Virus genome (UHGV): UHGV-0123923
Origin: a virus
Direction: 5' to 3' (one strand)
Length of the DNA: 40,997 nt
The position numbers and the translations under genes were made by a program. The notes below the pieces were generated by a model. The model was not told the origin of the DNA. It did not search any database and saw only the letters and a list, made by a program, of their open reading frames with translations. Positions 7,237 through 19,922 of this stretch are shown here, piece by piece. The first letter of the stretch is position 1. Every line of letters starts with the position of its first letter.

Positions 7237-8490
7237 TTATTCCAAATCTTCTTCACTAACCTGATTCCACTCAGGACGTTTGTCGTCTGCCGTTGCGACA
7301 CATGGTGCGCCTGGCTTACGGGTAATAAACGGCTCAAGCGCTGCCATCTCATCCGCCGAAAGAACTTTTGCTGCCTCCGTAGGGGTCATCAATACCTCTT
7401 TTTTGAGAATGTCGCCGTGTGACACTTCAATCGCATCGGCATCTTTCCACGCACGGTTGCCCATCTTACCTTCAACCAGCTTGTACCCAGGAACTTTCTT
7501 ACCGGAATGCAATGCGGCGGTCATCGCTTTCTCAACCTTGTCGATGTGCTGGCGTAACAGCGGCAACTTCTCATACTCAACTACGAGTTGCTCCGTCGTC
7601 AGTTCCAGCACAAAGTCGTCTTCAAGTTCTTCCGCCAGTACAGAATTAACCGTCTTTGTACGCGCGGCACACTGTTCAGAGAACCGGCACCACTGGCAAC
7701 CATCGACCGACGGTTTAAAGTCCGACGCTTTCAGGTTCTTCTTTCCACGGAAATAAGCATCAAGCGCTAACAGTGCCCGTTTCTGTGCGAACTTAGCGAA
7801 CAGTTCCAGACCTTCGACCGAGATGTCCCACTCTGACGCACCCCCCGCGTACGGCTGGAAGATGACCAGGCGCACTACTGTGATGTTATAACGTCTCTTG
7901 AGTCGGCGATAAACACCGAGAGCGTAAAGCATAAGCTGCTTGTTTTCTTTCGCTTCAACACGATGCCGTCCAGTTTTAAGGTCGCCAATAATGAGCATGT
8001 GCTCGTCGGTGTTCGCCAGTTCCTGGACAGCAACGAGGTCAGCCGTTCCGAACGTCTCGACACCTTCATACCCAGGATGCAATACCTCAGTAAGATTGAC
8101 TCGCATTTCCAGCTTGGCGTAAGTCGCTACGTCGATAATCGCTTTGCAGTAGTCGGTGTACTTGCGCACCTGCTCAATCATGTCCGCCGTAATCAGTACC
8201 GCGCCTTTCATTGGGCTGATTAGCGCCTTAATCTGGCCTTTACCTTCATCCAGCACGTAAGCGCCGACTTCACGCTCTAACGGCAGCGCAGCACCTTTGA
8301 TGTACTGGTTAAGATGCATCTCGGCTATGGTGTGCATAGCTGTGCCTAATACCGCGGCTTTACCGGACGTGTTAGGAATATCTTTTTCACAGGCCAGAGA
8401 AGCCGGGCAGGTTAGCCACTTTTTAGCGCCTGACGGTGATAGTAAGGCGTGTACATCGTTATTGCCGCCGCGCTCTTTTAGAATCATCAT
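7237..8490 (-). CDS. Cas4/RecB-like PD-(D/E)XK exonuclease with Fe-S cluster cysteines
   Basis: 417 aa; GGAGGG RBS; N-terminal Cys (LTCPASLAC), core IIGDLKTG, C-terminal C-x2-C-x5-C (CQWCRFSEQC). Confidence 0.7.
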   Translation of the reverse strand: MMILKERGGNNDVHALLSPSGAKKWLTCPASLACEKDIPNTSGKAAVLGTAMHTIAEMHLNQYIKGAALPLEREVGAYVLDEGKGQIKALISPMKGAVLITADMIEQVRKYTDYCKAIIDVATYAKLEMRVNLTEVLHPGYEGVETFGTADLVAVQELANTDEHMLIIGDLKTGRHRVEAKENKQLMLYALGVYRRLKRRYNITVVRLVIFQPYAGGASEWDISVEGLELFAKFAQKRALLALDAYFRGKKNLKASDFKPSVDGCQWCRFSEQCAARTKTVNSVLAEELEDDFVLELTTEQLVVEYEKLPLLRQHIDKVEKAMTAALHSGKKVPGYKLVEGKMGNRAWKDADAIEVSHGDILKKEVLMTPTEAAKVLSADEMAALEPFITRKPGAPCVATADDKRPEWNQVSEEDLE

Positions 8491-8744
8491 TTAGTGCCCT
8501 CCGGCAGTTCCGGTAAATACATCCAGTGAGTTATGCCCATCTCGATATACCGTTTCGTATATAGCTGATTTCCGTTCTCATCCAGCCCAGCCGTAATGTC
8601 GTCGAAATAGTCCTGTATATGTACAAAATCGATCCCACCTTCCGGGAACCCGTTATCGTCATATTTACCACCATCTACTGAGCAAACTAAAACAGAATCA
8701 TCTTTTGACTCCGGCAATGCTTCGTTTACACTAACCCAATTCAT
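8487..8744 (-). CDS. DUF551-like protein
   Basis: start moved to the ATG (MNWVSVNEALP) behind a GGGAGAA RBS; C-terminal THWMYLPELPE motif; paralog at 14096..14296. Confidence 0.5.
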   Translation of the reverse strand: MNWVSVNEALPESKDDSVLVCSVDGGKYDDNGFPEGGIDFVHIQDYFDDITAGLDENGNQLYTKRYIEMGITHWMYLPELPEGTK

Positions 8745-13951: not shown

Positions 13952-14103
13952 GAGAAGCATTTGAACGGTGGGCTGTGGTCGAGGGTCTGCCGGTTAACAA
14001 GGGTTCAAAGAAAGAGTACCTGAACGTTAAGACGCGTCTCGCGTGGCGGGCGTGGAAAGCTGGTGTGCAATCCTTGATTGAAAGAGGTGTGAGGTATGGG
14101 TGA
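13948..14103 (+). CDS. hypothetical small protein (51 aa), below the ORF-track cutoff
   Basis: ATGA overlap with the upstream stop; stop overlaps the next gene start. Confidence 0.3.
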   Translation: MREAFERWAVVEGLPVNKGSKKEYLNVKTRLAWRAWKAGVQSLIERGVRYG

Positions 14104-14296
14104 GTGGATTAAGTGTAGCGAGATGCTGCCGGGTAATGGGTATACGGATAAAGAGTTCCTGGTGTATGAAACGTTAAATAACGCAGTTCAGCACGATTAT
14201 TACATAGTTCCTGATGACGGGAGAAAGCCTTTCTGGAATCACTACGATAAGTACGTGACGCACTGGATGCCGTTACCCGAGCCGCCAGAAGTGTGA
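14096..14296 (+). CDS. DUF551-like protein
   Basis: MGEWIKCSEMLP N-terminus and THWMPLPEPPEV C-terminus; paralog of 8487..8744. Confidence 0.5.
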   Translation: MGEWIKCSEMLPGNGYTDKEFLVYETLNNAVQHDYYIVPDDGRKPFWNHYDKYVTHWMPLPEPPEV

Positions 14297-15346: not shown

Positions 15347-15549
15347 TGACCAGCATCTTATTTATCTGGGTACTGTCGGCGGGCCAGATGCAACTAGCGG
15401 CATCGGAAACGTTTTATTCGACGGAGGCGTGCCAGTCCGCGGCACGCGCCGCAGAGAACGCACACTTCCTGTTTCAGGGCGACAAGCCCAACGATTCAGA
15501 GGTACGCGCTATCTGCTCACCTAAGCGACTTGGCAATCAGGAGAAGTGA
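15346..15549 (+). CDS. small protein with hydrophobic N-terminus (possible membrane or exported protein)
   Basis: ATG overlaps the upstream stop; MTSILFIWVLSAGQMQLAAS; start uncertain. Confidence 0.4.
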   Translation: MTSILFIWVLSAGQMQLAASETFYSTEACQSAARAAENAHFLFQGDKPNDSEVRAICSPKRLGNQEK

Positions 15550-15731
15550 TTATGGTACAGAGATATTTATTACAAGGCGGTTTTGTCGCCCCGTATGATG
15601 AAGGACACTGGGTATTATATAACGATTATGTAAAACTCGAAGCTGAGTTACAGAAATACAAAGACCAGTTCCCGGATTACGTAGAGTGCGCGAACTGCGG
15701 GTCAATTACACATGTGGAAGGGGTGGAGTGA
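15546..15731 (+). CDS. hypothetical protein, paralog A (MVQRY family)
   Basis: shares MVQRY..G.WVLY.DY..LE..L pattern with the next gene. Confidence 0.45.
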   Translation: MIMVQRYLLQGGFVAPYDEGHWVLYNDYVKLEAELQKYKDQFPDYVECANCGSITHVEGVE

Positions 15732-15910
15732 TGGTGCAGAGATACGAAAACTACCACGGCGATATGTTTCAGGGCGCGGAAGGGCGCTGGGTCCTATACG
15801 AAGACTACGCGGAGCTTGAACGTAAACTGCGTGAGCTTGCTAAGCAGGTAGTAAACAGTCCGTGCGACTGGAAGACGGATGAATTGGCGCGCGAGATTCT
15901 GGACCTATGA
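15731..15910 (+). CDS. hypothetical protein, paralog B (MVQRY family)
   Basis: start moved to internal ATG (MVQRYENYHGDMF) overlapping the upstream stop. Confidence 0.45.
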   Translation: MVQRYENYHGDMFQGAEGRWVLYEDYAELERKLRELAKQVVNSPCDWKTDELAREILDL

Positions 15911-17312: not shown

Positions 17313-17525
17313 TGGGCGAATACGAAGGCGTTTAGTATTCTGGTTAGGCCAAGTTTTTCGTATTTGCCAATGGAGGCCGTTATGGCACTGCAAGAGTTCA
17401 CCAACCCAGTTAAATCTCGTGACGATATTGACGAGCAGGTCGGTTACGGCGAAGGTTGACACCTAAGACTAATCCGACGATACTTAAATCACCTCCTGTT
17501 CCATCCCTCTGCTCTCCAGTTTTAT

Positions 17526-17556
17526 CCCGGCCCTGACCCAGCCGGGATTTTTTTTA
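17526..17556 (+). terminator. intrinsic terminator after the lysis genes
   Basis: CCCGGC-CCTGACCCA-GCCGGG followed by ATTTTTTTTATC. Confidence 0.65.
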
Positions 17557-17577
17557 TCTATCTTCCGCAATGACTAG

Positions 17578-17606
17578 TTGACTATTACTCTCACACCAAT
17601 TATATT
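17578..17606 (+). promoter_or_regulatory. promoter (TTGACT-N17-TATATT)
   Basis: TTGACT 17578..17583, TATATT 17601..17606; ACTATT half-site overlaps the -35. Confidence 0.5.
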
Positions 17607-17639
17607 TACTCCATCGACAACGAGAACGGAGTAGAGAAA

Positions 17640-17780
17640 ATGAAAATCACAGACATCGAAGCATTCAAAGACGCACAACTGATGGCACGCATCGCCGTTA
17701 GTAACCTGAGCAACAGCATTCCAGCGGACGCGTTCTGGTTCGCTGCGATGCAGACACTTAAAGCAGCTTACGCAGGAGAG
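17640..17780 (+). CDS. hypothetical small protein (46 aa)
   Basis: GGAG RBS; ATGA coupling to the next gene. Confidence 0.3.
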
Positions 17781-17944
17781 AAGAAATGAGCGAGTCAGAA
17801 GGAAATATCACGACACCATCCGCCGGGAAGAAAGTCAACCGCACCCCGTTCCCGACACGAGAGGAACTGATGAAACGTAACAGTTTCCCTGGGCCGGACA
17901 AGAACAAGTATCTTAATCGCATGTGGGGAGAGCGTAAAGAATGA
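17777..17944 (+). CDS. hypothetical small protein (55 aa)
   Basis: ATGA overlaps at both ends. Confidence 0.3.
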   Translation, partial: REEMSESEGNITTPSAGKKVNRTPFPTREELMKRNSFPGPDKNKYLNRMWGERKE

Positions 17945-18186
17945 CTGACCGCGAATATGAAAAGATGATGGTAGAGGCTGTTAACGGCGGCGTAGACATC
18001 GGACACGTGATGCACGTCCTGAATACTAAAATCGCGGTAGCTGAGCAAATGGTTGAGTCGCTTTATGAGACGCGCCGTGAACTGATTAACCGCTTCAACC
18101 TGAACAAGTGCGAACATGAGTTCGACTACAATCCGAAGGATATGTGTGGGCAGTGTATTAAATGCGGGGTACAGCGTCATGCCTAA
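17941..18186 (+). CDS. small protein with C-terminal zinc-ribbon-like motif
   Basis: CEHEF...CGQCIKCG. Confidence 0.45.
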   Translation: MTDREYEKMMVEAVNGGVDIGHVMHVLNTKIAVAEQMVESLYETRRELINRFNLNKCEHEFDYNPKDMCGQCIKCGVQRHA

Positions 18187-18427
18187 AATCACAATCGCAT
18201 CGCTCGAGCGCCGTATTCTGGTGCTTGAGTCGGAGAAACAGACGTTAGGCGGGCAACTGTCGATTAACGGTGAGTACCAGTTAGCCGCATTTAAGGTTCT
18301 TCTCATGTTGTTGAGAGGAGAAGAGGAAAAGATGAACGCCTGCGAGCATGATTACCGCCTGCATTTAGTTGATGGGGAGCATCGAGTCACATGCTTAAAA
18401 TGCGGTAAAGCGTATGAAAGCGCCTGA
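18179..18427 (+). CDS. small protein with C-terminal zinc-ribbon-like motif
   Basis: start moved to ATG (MPKITIAS) overlapping the upstream stop; CEHDY...CLKCGK. Confidence 0.45.
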   Translation: MPKITIASLERRILVLESEKQTLGGQLSINGEYQLAAFKVLLMLLRGEEEKMNACEHDYRLHLVDGEHRVTCLKCGKAYESA

Positions 18428-18596
18428 ACCCGTAGTTATCGATGGCGTCCTGTGGAAACCATACTCGGTTAACCACATCGACGCCGACGGGAAGAAGTTT
18501 AGTTTCTACATTTTTGCAATTAGCCGTGAGCACGCCGCCTGTGTGGTCGATGATATACGAGAAACGGCGTGGCTTGGCGATGAGATAGTGGGGTAA
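18414..18596 (+). CDS. hypothetical protein (60 aa)
   Basis: overlapping start; no motif. Confidence 0.45.
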   Translation: MKAPEPVVIDGVLWKPYSVNHIDADGKKFSFYIFAISREHAACVVDDIRETAWLGDEIVG

Positions 18597-18598
18597 GT

Positions 18599-18769
18599 AT
18601 GTTCAGTGACATTAACGCGGCAATCGAAGAAGCAATCTGGCGTCGCTACAACGGCGAGCAACAACGGCACTTCTGCCTGGTGCAGCGCGGTAACGTGATT
18701 GCCGTGGTACAGGACCGCGATAGTAAATATCCGAATGCGATGTGGACAACGAGGAATTTCTTAGGATGA
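18599..18769 (+). CDS. hypothetical small protein (56 aa)
   Basis: ATG 3 nt after the previous stop; stop overlaps the next ATG. Confidence 0.3.
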   Translation: MFSDINAAIEEAIWRRYNGEQQRHFCLVQRGNVIAVVQDRDSKYPNAMWTTRNFLG

Positions 18770-19002
18770 TTACCAGCATTCCGAACCTGATTAAAGAATT
18801 CGGCACGATGGCGGAGACATGCCGACAAACCGGCATCAACGAGATGACGATTGCCAAGTACAGCAAAGACGTTAACTGCGAGCGCCATGTAATTTATAAC
18901 AACCGTCTGATGACGCACGTTAAGACAAGCCCGGTGTTATTCACGCGCCGGGGTATCACTAAAACGGAGCAACGTATTGCTAAAGAGGAGAGTGGGGGAT
19001 GA
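18766..19002 (+). CDS. hypothetical protein, possible HTH
   Basis: start moved to the internal ATG; segment ETCRQTGINEMTIAKYSK resembles an HTH. Confidence 0.4.
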   Translation: MITSIPNLIKEFGTMAETCRQTGINEMTIAKYSKDVNCERHVIYNNRLMTHVKTSPVLFTRRGITKTEQRIAKEESGG

Positions 19003-19157
19003 TTAGTATTCTGGAGTTCATCGACAACCAAGTTTGGTACGAGCCAGAGTTAAATAAGTATTCAGTTAATGGGAAAATATTTCGGCGCAAAGGCCAGGCA
19101 GAGCGTTACGCAGCTAAACTATACCGTCAGCTTGTCAAGGATGGTTTCTTCAAATGA
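18999..19157 (+). CDS. hypothetical small protein (52 aa)
   Basis: ATGA overlap; below the ORF-track cutoff. Confidence 0.3.
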   Translation: MISILEFIDNQVWYEPELNKYSVNGKIFRRKGQAERYAAKLYRQLVKDGFFK

Positions 19158-19259
19158 GACTACTAATCATCCCTAACGCCCGGGCCATTCCCGTAGCTAA
19201 CGACCATTACGGCGGCGACGGTAAAAGAGCACCACGCCACGGCCTATACAACTGATACA

Positions 19260-19284
19260 AGCCCTCTACCGAGGGCTTTTCTGT
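19260..19284 (+). terminator. intrinsic terminator before the packaging genes
   Basis: GCCCTC-TACC-GAGGGC followed by TTTTCTGT. Confidence 0.6.
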
Positions 19285-19376
19285 ACATCCTGCCCAATCA
19301 CCCTATATAATCCCTTTAGACGCGTAGGGCGCGTCTGGTGCGCTCTGATGGTCAGACGCATATGCAAGGGGATTAT

Positions 19377-19922
19377 ATGAAGCTGAAACTCAAGCAGCCA
19401 TCGCCAGAGGTGGTGCAAGCTGCACATGAAGAAGCTGTTAGTGCAAACCGCCGACGTAAACGACCGCGTGGGAAACAGAGCCTTTATCAATCGTCCCGTA
19501 ATTCCGCCGCGTTGTGGGACCCGGACTATTGCGACGCGTTAATCGAGTTCTTCGACCGTACGTCGTGGGAACTTGTGCCTACGTCCAAGGGTGACGAACG
19601 TCCGCTGATTCAGGATAAACCGCCGTCACTGGCCCGCTTCGCCTCACACATCGGCGTAACTATCCCGATTATTAAGCTGTGGCTGCGTGAGATTCCCGCA
19701 TTTGCAGAAGCCTATGAAACAGCACAGGCGCTGGAAGAGGCATATTTCACTGAGACAGGGGCCGCGGGCATCTCTGCTACGTTCGCCGCAGCTAAACTGG
19801 GCCTCGGTAAAGAGAAACCAGTCGAATCCACCGAAGAAACGGCACCGACTGAGATTATTTTTAGTGTTGCAGAGCCTGTAGGTAAAATTGTAACAACGAA
19901 TATGGGTGAGGTAGAGGAATGA
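19377..19922 (+). CDS. terminase small subunit candidate
   Basis: ATG behind AAGGGGA; immediately upstream of and overlapping (ATGA) the large terminase; basic N-terminus. Confidence 0.5.
   Translation: MKLKLKQPSPEVVQAAHEEAVSANRRRKRPRGKQSLYQSSRNSAALWDPDYCDALIEFFDRTSWELVPTSKGDERPLIQDKPPSLARFASHIGVTIPIIKLWLREIPAFAEAYETAQALEEAYFTETGAAGISATFAAAKLGLGKEKPVESTEETAPTEIIFSVAEPVGKIVTTNMGEVEE

Follow-up and report, generated by a model that had tools for sequence, protein, structure and literature searches.

The nin region of phages lambda and P22 (ninA to ninH, ninX, ninY and ninZ) is a chain of small, mostly overlapping genes that are individually non-essential. It lies inside the pR transcript, flanked by replication genes on one side and the late antiterminator on the other, and in P22 ninH and ninZ are neighbours. 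In the early-left 'ea' region of P22, HK97 and ES18 a DUF2737 gene follows abc2 within the pL operon. Phages of the Drexlerviridae (T1-like) carry a small-gene array that is dense and overlapping, and which adjoins replication genes. The NinH protein of lambda, the only NinH for which this is known, is a DNA-bending homodimer, deletion of which leads to small plaques (PMC7166090).

The DNA analysed here (the window) is a stretch of 40,997 nt, virus genome UHGV-0123923. It is the Kagunavirus (Guernseyvirinae) genome of a K1G-like Escherichia coli phage, with 99% identity to phage fTaEco01. Nine open reading frames on the + strand (P1 to P9), each encoding 33–82 amino acids, span positions 17640–19255. 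The cassette is flanked by the endolysin gene on one side and that of the small terminase on the other, in agreement with the location between lysis and packaging modules given in an earlier note on this DNA. The spacer at 17313–17455 is a variable segment following the endolysin gene.

Like the nin region, the cassette is a chain of small, mostly overlapping genes, and it encodes a homologue of NinH (P7) and, in P3, an N-domain that resembles NinZ, the genes of which are neighbours in P22. Unlike the nin region it has its own promoter and terminators, with neither a Q or gene-23 antiterminator nor replication genes upstream; the annotation of fTaEco01 contains no integrase and no antiterminator. 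Searches with Pfam, and tblastn of the nine products, revealed no homologue of NinB, NinG or other nin proteins in the cassette. The idea of a whole nin region transplanted into this position was rejected because tblastn against P22, HK446 and ES18 matched only P2 to orf56 and, weakly, P3 to NinZ. While the DUF2737 gene of the early-left regions is placed after abc2, its counterpart P2 here follows P1 and precedes the NinZ-like gene. The Drexlerviridae array resembles the cassette in its density and overlaps and holds a homologue of P9, but the cassette lies between lysis and packaging genes rather than beside replication genes. Homologues of P6 are found in the G7C group of phages (genomes of ∼72 kb). 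The cassette is ordinary, with a gene content already annotated in relatives, and is not a new kind of system.

Organization and transcription of the cassette

All the transcription signals described here are on the + strand. Upstream of the cassette an intrinsic terminator (17524..17556) closes the lysis cassette. Its 8-bp G+C stem carries a loop of 9 nt and is followed by a run of eight U nucleotides; the calculated RNA folding energy is −13.8 kcal/mol (z = −2.96). The stem is kept in 11 phages, with a compensatory change from C/G to T/A in Jerseyvirus Psm147. The terminator was missed by the scanner because its loop is longer than 8 nt. It is followed by a sigma-70-type promoter (17578..17606; TTGACT-17-TATATT) that matches the consensus at 10 of 12 positions. 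This promoter, already proposed in the earlier note, was found again by a promoter scan. Its TTGAC and TATATT elements do not vary among 11 genomes of Kagunavirus and Jerseyvirus, in contrast to the spacer between them. A GGAG ribosome-binding site is located 8 nt 5′ of the ATG of P1. At the other end of the cassette a second intrinsic terminator (19259..19285) closes the operon (folding energy −13.4 to −14.3 kcal/mol, z = −3.67). Its 8-bp stem (AAGCCCTC/GAGGGCTT) encloses a loop of 4 nt and precedes a U-rich tail. This stem is kept in 10 phages, with a compensatory T–A to G–C change in Jerseyvirus, and the loop varies in pse-D34. These predicted elements support the assignment of the nine ORFs to one transcription unit with its own promoter and flanking terminators.

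The junctions within the cassette are tight. Five are 4-nt ATGA overlaps, one is an 8-nt overlap, one a 14-nt overlap and one a 2-nt gap (TAAGTATG). The ATGA linkage described previously thus holds for five junctions, while the TGATG type that was also described is present at none of them. The boundary between the first two genes is corrected here: P1 ends at 17789 and P2 starts at 17786, not at 17780 and 17777 respectively. The junctions are compatible with translational coupling of the genes. In the fTaEco01 annotation outside the cassette, genes of the same strand meet just as tightly at 34 of 55 junctions, and 38 of 70 coding sequences encode 100 amino acids or fewer, so that such a block is not unusual for the genome.

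An RNA-seq study of Kagunavirus K1B4 reports transcription of the NinH-like gene during infection (PMC12645636). In the rather coarse classification of that study the gene shares the 'middle' class with structural and lysis genes, and is not in the early class (PMC12645636). Per-gene data for the cassette were sought in the supplements of that study, and none were found (PMC12645636).

Coding evidence and conservation

Compared with 12 relatives, substitutions in the ORFs lie mostly at third codon positions. The pooled pN/pS ratio is between 0.08 and 0.40 for eight of them (P1 0.11, P2 0.40, P3 0.11, P4 0.25, P5 0.08, P6 0.08, P7 0.11 and P9 0.27); P8 was left out of the selection test because the differences among relatives are too few. 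These eight ORFs are protein coding, and under purifying selection. The existence of a chain of same-strand micro-genes, as had been noticed from the DNA, is therefore real. Profile searches of each product, as proposed in the earlier note, matched all nine to PHROG families (E = 1e-14 to 1e-47), every one of which is annotated as of unknown function. In fTaEco01 all nine genes are annotated as coding sequences (TE1_064 to TE1_072) for hypothetical proteins.

It might be argued that these are chance open frames within a spacer that is non-coding or that encodes an RNA, since several fall under the usual gene-calling cut-offs and the older records of K1G, K1H and K1ind annotate just two to four of the nine genes. 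This is highly improbable. The third-position bias and low pN/pS refute it for eight of the ORFs, the PHROG matches extend to all nine, and a 16-residue core of P9 is identical in two phage families. An Rfam scan of the region gave only weak matches, to the hairpin of the terminator at 17524..17556, and no other family. Moreover, stop codons interrupt an antisense ORF of 182 amino acids in eight of the 12 relatives; this ORF was considered as a gene and ruled out as spurious on that basis.

The corresponding cassette of fTaEco01 agrees in position, promoter and terminators, and seven of its nine proteins are 97–100% identical to those of the window. In phage G AB-2017 (G_28 to G_34) seven proteins are 99–100% identical, with P6 at 95% and P9 at 97%. 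Corresponding genes are located between those of lysozyme and terminase in Jerseyvirus Psm147. Among the 12 relatives, drawn from two genera, a core of five is conserved, comprising P1, P2, the N-domain of P3, P7 and P9. The variable slots are P4, P5, P6 and P8, together with extra insertions and the swappable tails of P3 and P4. Other members of the Guernseyvirinae have up to 12 genes in the cassette, with insertions before P1 and after P1, P5, P6 and P9. The window differs from most relatives in the presence of P8, and from fTaEco01 in the zinc-knuckle tail of P3. More distant homologues of P5, P6, P8 and P9 are found in unrelated virulent phages.

The proteins of the cassette

P1 (17640–17789, 49 aa) is predicted to be soluble. 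It belongs to phrog_2180 (E = 1.9e-26), is present in 12 of 12 relatives (TE1_064 in fTaEco01) and has homologues in 664 phage records by tblastn. P2 (17786–17944, 52 aa) is a basic protein that matches the Pfam family PF10930 (DUF2737) with 38.4 bits (E = 1.1e-9), passing the cut-off of 25. Searching with tblastn against P22 orf56, ES18 gp44 and HK446 gp28 gave E values of 2e-9 to 7e-9, the alignment with P22 orf56 (E = 7e-9) having 58% identity across 31 residues. As judged from these similarities, P2 is a homologue of P22 orf56, HK97 gp38 and ES18 gp44. A literature search on DUF2737 and NinZ returned nothing useful.

P3 (17941–18186, 81 aa, phrog_1402) consists of a NinZ-like helical N-domain (residues 1–56) and an optional tail with cysteine and histidine ligands (C57-x-H59 and C69-x2-C72-x2-C75). 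The N-domain is present in 12 of 12 relatives, in which it is followed by one of several tail types or by no tail at all; the ligands are conserved in every homologue that has the tail. Comparison with P22 NinZ using hhalign gave a probability of 94% (E = 1.3e-7) over just 29 columns around RRELINRFNLNK / ERELVNRIGLNK. A plain tblastn match to NinZ is weak (E = 0.03), and NinZ has no Pfam model. From these alignments the N-domain of P3 appears to resemble P22 NinZ.

P4 (18179–18427, 82 aa) is predicted to form a helical hairpin (residues 6–53) followed by a zinc-knuckle-like beta-hairpin tail (C55-x-H57...C72-x2-C75). The AF2 model has an overall pLDDT of 82, which is >95 over the helices and only 52–72 in the tail, where strands are placed at 59–64 and 67–72. 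In 36 homologues there is no variation at C72, K74, C75 or G76, and conservation of C55 and H57 is at least 90%. Alternative tails of P4 are found in other Kagunavirus phages. Searches of the PDB, by sequence and by Foldseek of the model, gave no significant match, with weak similarities to C2H2 fingers and coiled coils.

The tails of P3 and P4 had been noted as suggestive of zinc ribbons. The conserved cysteine and histidine ligands in a predicted beta-hairpin are in keeping with this, but the ligands are not two CxxC pairs, each tail having one CxxC knuckle and a CxH; a classical zinc ribbon was thus rejected. Conservation and the low-pLDDT AF2 model point to four metal ligands with a beta-hairpin between the ligand pairs, described here as a predicted CxH...CxxC zinc-knuckle-like module, which is one of the tail types of P3 and P4. 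The tails have no match to Pfam zinc-finger families at E ≤ 1. The C4 zinc finger of TraR/DksA was considered because a coiled coil is there combined with a C-terminal cysteine cluster; it was discarded, with no Pfam match at E ≤ 1 and no CxxC-x17-CxxC in P3 or P4. The P3 of fTaEco01 has no zinc tail, though the genomes are 99% identical, so this tail is dispensable. Since tails are swapped between phages, parts of both P3 and P4 are dispensable.

P5 (18414–18596, 60 aa, phrog_10509) is acidic. An exhaustive HMMER search led to 55 clusters, nearly all of small uncharacterized proteins; two long matches were set aside as low-complexity or repeat artefacts. Its distant homologues are located in large Pectobacterium and Cronobacter phages and in phage Fraca, and there is no match in the PDB or Pfam. 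P6 (18599–18769, 56 aa, phrog_5407) has homologues with 44–51% identity at 2–4 kb from a genome end in phage G7C and its close matches (∼72 kb), with no match in the PDB.

P7 (18766–19002, 78 aa) is a basic protein with a divergent NinH-like helix-turn-helix. It matches the Pfam NinH family PF06322 with 22.0 bits (E = 1.6e-4), which is under the gathering cut-off of 29.8; a precomputed match to PF06322 exists for 11 of 26 homologue clusters of 67–97% identity. Comparison of the P7 family with P22 NinH using hhalign gave a probability of 96.4% (E = 1.3e-9) with 31% identity over 52 columns, and in a MAFFT alignment P7 is 32% identical to NinH of P22 and 28% to that of lambda. A structural match in BFVD is to a 'NinH family protein' (E = 4.9e-4), while Foldseek of the model against the PDB gave only weak generic helix-turn-helix matches (E > 0.4). 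The AF2 model (pLDDT 79) has helices at 5–12, 15–22 and 26–31, a beta-hairpin with strands at 42–44 and 47–49, and C-terminal helices. On sequence grounds homology of P7 to NinH of P22 and lambda is demonstrable, if divergent.

The nearly invariant H41 and the invariant H51 of P7 align with H45 and H55 of lambda NinH, and T28 and K31 are kept as the equivalents of T32 and K35. The positions of lambda N18, R30 and R34 are occupied by threonine, an invariant glutamate (E26) and alanine respectively, and the equivalent of R56 is also missing. P7 does not carry the Fis-type DNA-contact set (lambda N18, R30, T32, R34 and K35). In the lambda NinH study (PMC7166090), substitution of N18, R30 or R56 by alanine weakened or abolished DNA binding, with KD raised >1000-fold by R30A, and R34 was also chosen for mutation. 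Given that the equivalents of N18, R30, R34 and R56 are missing, DNA binding by P7 is not assured.

P8 (18999–19157, 52 aa, phrog_22059, E = 7e-42) is a basic protein occupying a variable slot. Only 4 of 12 relatives carry it, with 98–100% protein identity, and its distant homologues (36–48% identity) are in unrelated, mostly large (120–170 kb) enterobacterial phages. P9 (19154–19255) is a basic micro-protein of 33 aa (PHROG E = 3.3e-14) whose core, VANDHYGGDGKRAPRH, is invariant. Two phages of the Drexlerviridae, tiwna and Samwise, share the 16-residue core unchanged, with nucleotide differences mainly at third codon positions. The Drexlerviridae homologue lies inside the small-gene array, upstream of the genes of a DNA methyltransferase and a helicase.

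Possible functions of the cassette

On balance, the nine genes rather probably constitute a conserved accessory small-gene cassette, located between endolysin and small terminase in every Guernseyvirinae genome examined. Host RNA polymerase would transcribe it as a single mRNA of ∼1.65 kb with no requirement for a phage activator, and ribosomes would move from cistron to cistron where stop and start codons overlap. The products would not be parts of the virion, but small DNA-binding and protein-binding modulators. P7 may be a dimeric helix-turn-helix DNA-binding protein with a specificity unlike that of Fis and lambda NinH, while P3 and P4 may be helical adaptors, part of them with a zinc knuckle. 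Together the proteins would tune DNA transactions of the phage or host so as to increase yield, each being singly dispensable. By analogy, an accessory, early-type role is favoured by the location of the lambdoid homologues in non-essential regions and of the P9 homologue in the T1-like array. The 'middle' class of the NinH-like gene in K1B4 argues against an early-type role, and conservation of five genes in two genera with a fixed position beside terminase could indicate a core function.

Small size and a place in arrays of this sort are shared by many known anti-defence genes, and, as the earlier note suggested, the cassette could instead be an arsenal for counter-defence or host takeover, in which each micro-protein inhibits a specific immune system or host factor and an arms race lies behind the variable slots and swappable tails. 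We regard this as rather unlikely. Gene content and the P3 and P4 tails do differ between phages of >90% identity, the products are small and acidic or basic, and some genes are common to unrelated phage families (P9 in the Drexlerviridae array, and P6 near the genome end in the G7C group). In addition, homologues of P2 adjoin abc2, which encodes an anti-RecBCD protein, in the early-left operons of P22 and HK97-type phages. However, five of the nine are shared by both genera at pN/pS near 0.1–0.4, unlike an arsenal of fast turnover. High sensitivity to restriction-modification systems, and variable sensitivity to Old, have been reported for Kagunavirus phages, which argues against a broad anti-restriction function. 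Nor was similarity found to characterized inhibitors, defence proteins or solved structures, a weak negative that rests on general libraries and PADLOC: Pfam, NCBIfam and PDB sequence searches with all or most of the products returned only DUF2737 and the sub-threshold NinH match, and PADLOC gave no matches for the cassette products. Neither Kagunavirus nor Drexlerviridae is mentioned in the text of the HIDEN-SEQ paper.

A still less probable reading is that the cassette regulates the adjacent late/packaging operon, one or more of the core proteins acting on the promoter and leader at 19282–19378 or aiding the small terminase at the initiation of packaging. P7 would be the obvious candidate, with its predicted helix-turn-helix fold and the reported peak of the NinH-like gene alongside structural and lysis genes. 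Synteny with the small terminase is invariant in all the Guernseyvirinae genomes examined, and in the next promoter downstream the −35 hexamer (TGTACA) is poor, with a conserved hairpin or palindrome lying beyond that promoter. Against this, the substitutions in that hairpin are compatible with G–U pairing, suggesting an RNA structure and not a protein operator, and homologues of P2, P3, P7 and P9 in lambdoid or T1-like phages are not beside a terminase gene. It is more doubtful again that P3 and P4 form an undescribed class of modular adaptor and that P9 is a conserved inhibitor peptide. On this joint reading the helical N-domain would dock a constant partner, while swappable C-terminal 'warheads' (zinc knuckle, acidic tails and others) would retarget it to host factors or defence proteins, and P9 would inhibit one host target in both Guernseyvirinae and Drexlerviridae.

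The practical gain is modest but genuine. All nine micro-ORFs merit annotation, where older records of K1 phages carry two to four, and three of them are tied to the lambdoid NinH, NinZ and orf56 families. This is a clean promoter-to-terminator cassette in a group of 41-kb phages that is already in engineering use; if dispensable, it would be a candidate site for the insertion of payloads. It also provides a tractable set of 'dark-matter' small genes for screens of essentiality and anti-defence activity.

Two pairs of paralogues noted elsewhere in the window are borne out. Both of the DUF551-like proteins (8487..8744 and 14096..14296) score above the Pfam cut-off, and the MVQRY-type proteins (15546..15731 and 15731..15910) are tandem paralogues with 46% identity.

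Organization and setting of the cassette

The cassette consists of nine consecutive + strand ORFs, taken from reading of the sequence and the ORF list, all of which begin with ATG. Starting at the 5′ end these are P1 (17640-17789, 49 aa), P2 (17786-17944, 52 aa), P3 (17941-18186, 81 aa), P4 (18179-18427, 82 aa), P5 (18414-18596, 60 aa), P6 (18599-18769, 56 aa), P7 (18766-19002, 78 aa), P8 (18999-19157, 52 aa) and P9 (19154-19255, 33 aa). Five of the junctions are ATGA overlaps, and the remainder comprise overlaps of 8 and 14 nt and a gap of 2 nt. An earlier note made from the sequence alone had also described TGATG junctions, none of which is found here; it misplaced the end of P1 and the start of P2 by 9 nt, its remaining coordinates being right.

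A GGAG sequence is located 8 nt ahead of the P1 ATG. Further upstream on the + strand is the sigma-70-type promoter-like site that the earlier note had correctly recognized (17578-17606, TTGACT-17-TATATT), preceded by a terminator (17524-17556, +) in which U8 follows a G+C stem of 8 bp (-13.8 kcal/mol, z = -2.96). After P9 comes a second terminator (19259-19285, +), an 8-bp stem with a U-rich tail (z = -3.67). Alignment of 10-11 phages from both genera (Kagunavirus and Jerseyvirus) reveals invariant -35 and -10 hexamers with a variable spacer, and both terminator stems are preserved through compensatory changes in Jerseyvirus Psm147. Where relatives have extra genes, there is insertion at the start of P1, behind the same promoter. 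The hairpins and the conservation of promoter and stems therefore delimit a unit of terminator, promoter, nine genes and terminator. From the geometry, P1-P9 are probably expressed as a single mRNA with translational coupling.

A promoter-like site with a weak -35 (19282-19311, TGTACA-18-TATAAT) lies ahead of the small terminase gene, directly followed by a conserved hairpin (19318-19336, AGACGCG-TAGGG-CGCGTCT) with a fold z-score of only -0.8. The substitutions in Psm147 (AGACGCT...GGTGTCT) fit G-U pairing, suggesting an RNA leader hairpin and not a DNA operator. A third copy of AGACGC occurs ~20 nt downstream of the hairpin (region 19282-19378).

All of the 214 phage records matched by megablast of 17400-19400 belong to Guernseyvirinae siphoviruses that infect Escherichia or Salmonella. 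Two members of the genus Kagunavirus match best, Escherichia phage vB_EcoS_fTaEco01 with 99.3% identity and phage G AB-2017 with 97.6%. The window shares the layout of fTaEco01: holin and endolysin genes come first, then the small genes, and then those for small terminase, large terminase and structural proteins. The fTaEco01 genome has no annotated integrase. In its annotation 38 of 70 CDS are ≤100 aa, and of the 55 same-strand junctions that lie elsewhere than in the cassette, 34 overlap or leave a gap of ≤3 nt (4-nt overlaps, 16/55). The density of the cassette is not very unusual for this genome. Another block of small genes, which includes one of two DUF551 proteins and the MVQRY pair, is situated upstream of the lysis genes. 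Both DUF551 assignments proposed earlier (8487-8744, -; 14096-14296, +) score above the Pfam threshold of 22 bits (35.3 and 46.6 bits), and the two MVQRY proteins (15546-15910, +) are indeed paralogues in tandem that share 46% identity in an alignment of 39 residues. The segment directly after the endolysin stop (17313-17455) is poorly conserved, with a full-length match in only ~3 records and divergence in most relatives; a convincing ORF was not seen there.

Conservation and coding evidence

The proposed position between lysis and packaging modules holds: a slot between the endolysin and small terminase genes is present in every Guernseyvirinae genome examined, with 7 to 12 genes. Orthologues of P1-P9 were located in 12 related genomes, and substitutions counted per codon position. 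P1, P2, the N-domain of P3, P7 and P9 are found in all 12, a Jerseyvirus among them, and P5 and P6 in 11, being missing from Psm147. Psm147 also lacks P4, of which pse-D34 and JSSK01 retain just the N-terminal 44 residues; P8 is sporadic, and extra genes have been inserted at several points. From this pattern the cassette is therefore described as a conserved core with variable slots. One gene absent from the window (L012:2195-2425, in one of the 12 relatives) is named 'RNA-binding protein' in GenBank, a name that is unsupported.

Pooled substitutions at codon positions 1/2/3 are 19/4/91 for P5, 20/11/108 for P6 and 25/20/158 for P7. Values of pN/pS, likewise pooled, are 0.11 (P1), 0.40 (P2), 0.11 (P3), 0.25 (P4), 0.08 (P5), 0.08 (P6), 0.11 (P7) and 0.27 (P9). 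P8, almost invariant and found in only 4/12 relatives, is outside the reach of this test; it matches phrog_22059 (E = 7e-42), and unrelated phages have homologues that are 36-48% identical to it. The 16-residue core of P9, VANDHYGGDGKRAPRH, is identical in the Drexlerviridae phages tiwna and Samwise, the nucleotide differences being mainly at third codon positions. A 182-aa antisense ORF across P2-P4 (17758-18306, -) has stop codons in 8/12 relatives and is considered an artefact of coding-strand composition. A search of Rfam gave no match but the terminator hairpin. Because of the third-position bias, low pN/pS, PHROG and distant homologues, broken antisense ORF and Rfam result, the nine micro-ORFs are regarded as genuine protein-coding genes.

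Protein families and domain structure

Each of P1-P9 matches a PHROG family labelled 'unknown function' (E = 1e-14 to 1e-47), and all nine are hypothetical proteins in fTaEco01. P2 is above the Pfam cut-off for DUF2737, and aligns with P22 orf56, ES18 gp44 and HK446 gp28, which in their lambdoid genomes are located just after abc2 in the early-left operon. No informative family, structure or defence-system match was obtained for P1, P5, P6, P8 or P9. More distant homologues of P5, P6, P8 and P9 occur here and there in unrelated virulent phages of enterobacteria. Those of P5 are from phage Fraca and from large phages of Pectobacterium and Cronobacter, and those of P6 from G7C and its close matches, in whose ~72-kb genomes they are 2-4 kb away from one end; P8 has its homologues in mostly large (120-170 kb) phages, and P9 in T1-like Drexlerviridae, inside a small-gene array upstream of DNA methyltransferase and helicase genes (L017:2501-2599; L018:2501-2599). 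The P9 homologue is unannotated in some Drexlerviridae records. Two GenBank names in one relative are unsupported, namely 'host nuclease inhibitor' for a P5 homologue (L004:1783-1965; the record note cites no homology hit) and 'head protein' for a P1 homologue (L004:1081-1230; the note cites only a phage name).

P7 has a sub-threshold match to Pfam NinH, and profile comparison of its family with P22 NinH (96.4%, E = 1.3e-9) indicates that the two are clearly homologous. The AF2 model (pLDDT 79) shows an HTH of three helices and, after it, a β-hairpin; in BFVD it significantly matches a 'NinH family protein', but in the PDB its matches are weak and to generic HTH proteins only. Lambda NinH mimics Fis, bending DNA as a homodimer, and alanine at N18, R30, T32, K35, H45, H55 or R56 weakens or abolishes its DNA binding (PMC7166090). 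The P7 family retains the equivalents of T32, K35, H45 and H55, with N18 replaced by Thr, R30 by invariant Glu, R34 by Ala and R56 by Val. Because of these changes, P7 is considered a divergent relative of NinH and, by the residue test, not a Fis mimic.

The N-terminal 56 residues of P3 are conserved in all 12 relatives, and hhalign shows a resemblance to P22 NinZ (94%, E = 1.3e-7) that spans 29 columns. The AF2 model of P4 has a helical hairpin, predicted with confidence, and a β-hairpin of lower confidence. Among 36 homologues of P4, its ligand set C55-x-H57...C72-x2-C75 varies little or not at all, and P3 shares the motif in its tail (C57-x-H59...C69-x2-C72-x2-C75). The zinc ribbons proposed for both proteins are not of the classical two-CxxC kind and match no Pfam zinc-finger family; zinc knuckles are plausible. 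In other Kagunavirus phages the same N-domains carry a short acidic tail, a longer unrelated tail or none, and P3 of the 99% identical fTaEco01 is 61 aa and lacks the zinc tail. P3 and P4 (17941-18427) are modular across Kagunavirus phages, with a conserved helical N-domain and one of several alternative C-terminal tails, and a phage can therefore be viable without the putative zinc modules. In P3 the boundary with the tail is immediately behind the invariant motif RRELINRFNLNK.

Possible role of the cassette

Public annotation and PHROGs already cover the genes, the gene order and the protein families. Added here are the coding evidence for all nine genes, the unit defined from promoter to terminator, the links to NinZ, NinH and orf56, the residue-by-residue divergence of P7 from NinH and Fis, and the architecture of P3 and P4 with their exchangeable tails. 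The cassette itself is an ordinary set of phage accessory genes, and its recognizable members seem to be homologues of individually non-essential lambdoid genes.

We lean slightly towards an autonomous operon of small DNA- and protein-binding modulators that improve yield. It would be transcribed by host RNA polymerase, and its products would be small non-structural proteins, with P7 binding DNA and P3 and P4 (helical, with optional zinc knuckles) binding other proteins. These may modulate phage or host DNA transactions and so raise yield, compare the small plaques caused by deletion of lambda ninH (PMC7166090). A narrower version, in which the products serve anti-defence or host takeover as the earlier note had proposed, accords with the variability of the slots, the exchange of tails and the occurrence of the same genes in different phage families. 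We nevertheless think it rather unlikely: the core is strongly conserved, Pfam, NCBIfam, PADLOC and PDB searches gave no similarity of the products to known inhibitors, and Kagunavirus phages are reported to be highly sensitive to restriction-modification systems and variably so to Old.

Control of the adjacent late and packaging operon by the cassette seems more doubtful still. Synteny with the terminase gene is invariant, the next promoter has its weak -35 and conserved hairpin, and coarse RNA-seq puts the NinH-like gene among 'middle' genes (PMC12645636), but the lambdoid and T1-like homologues of P2, P3, P7 and P9 are unlinked to terminase genes.
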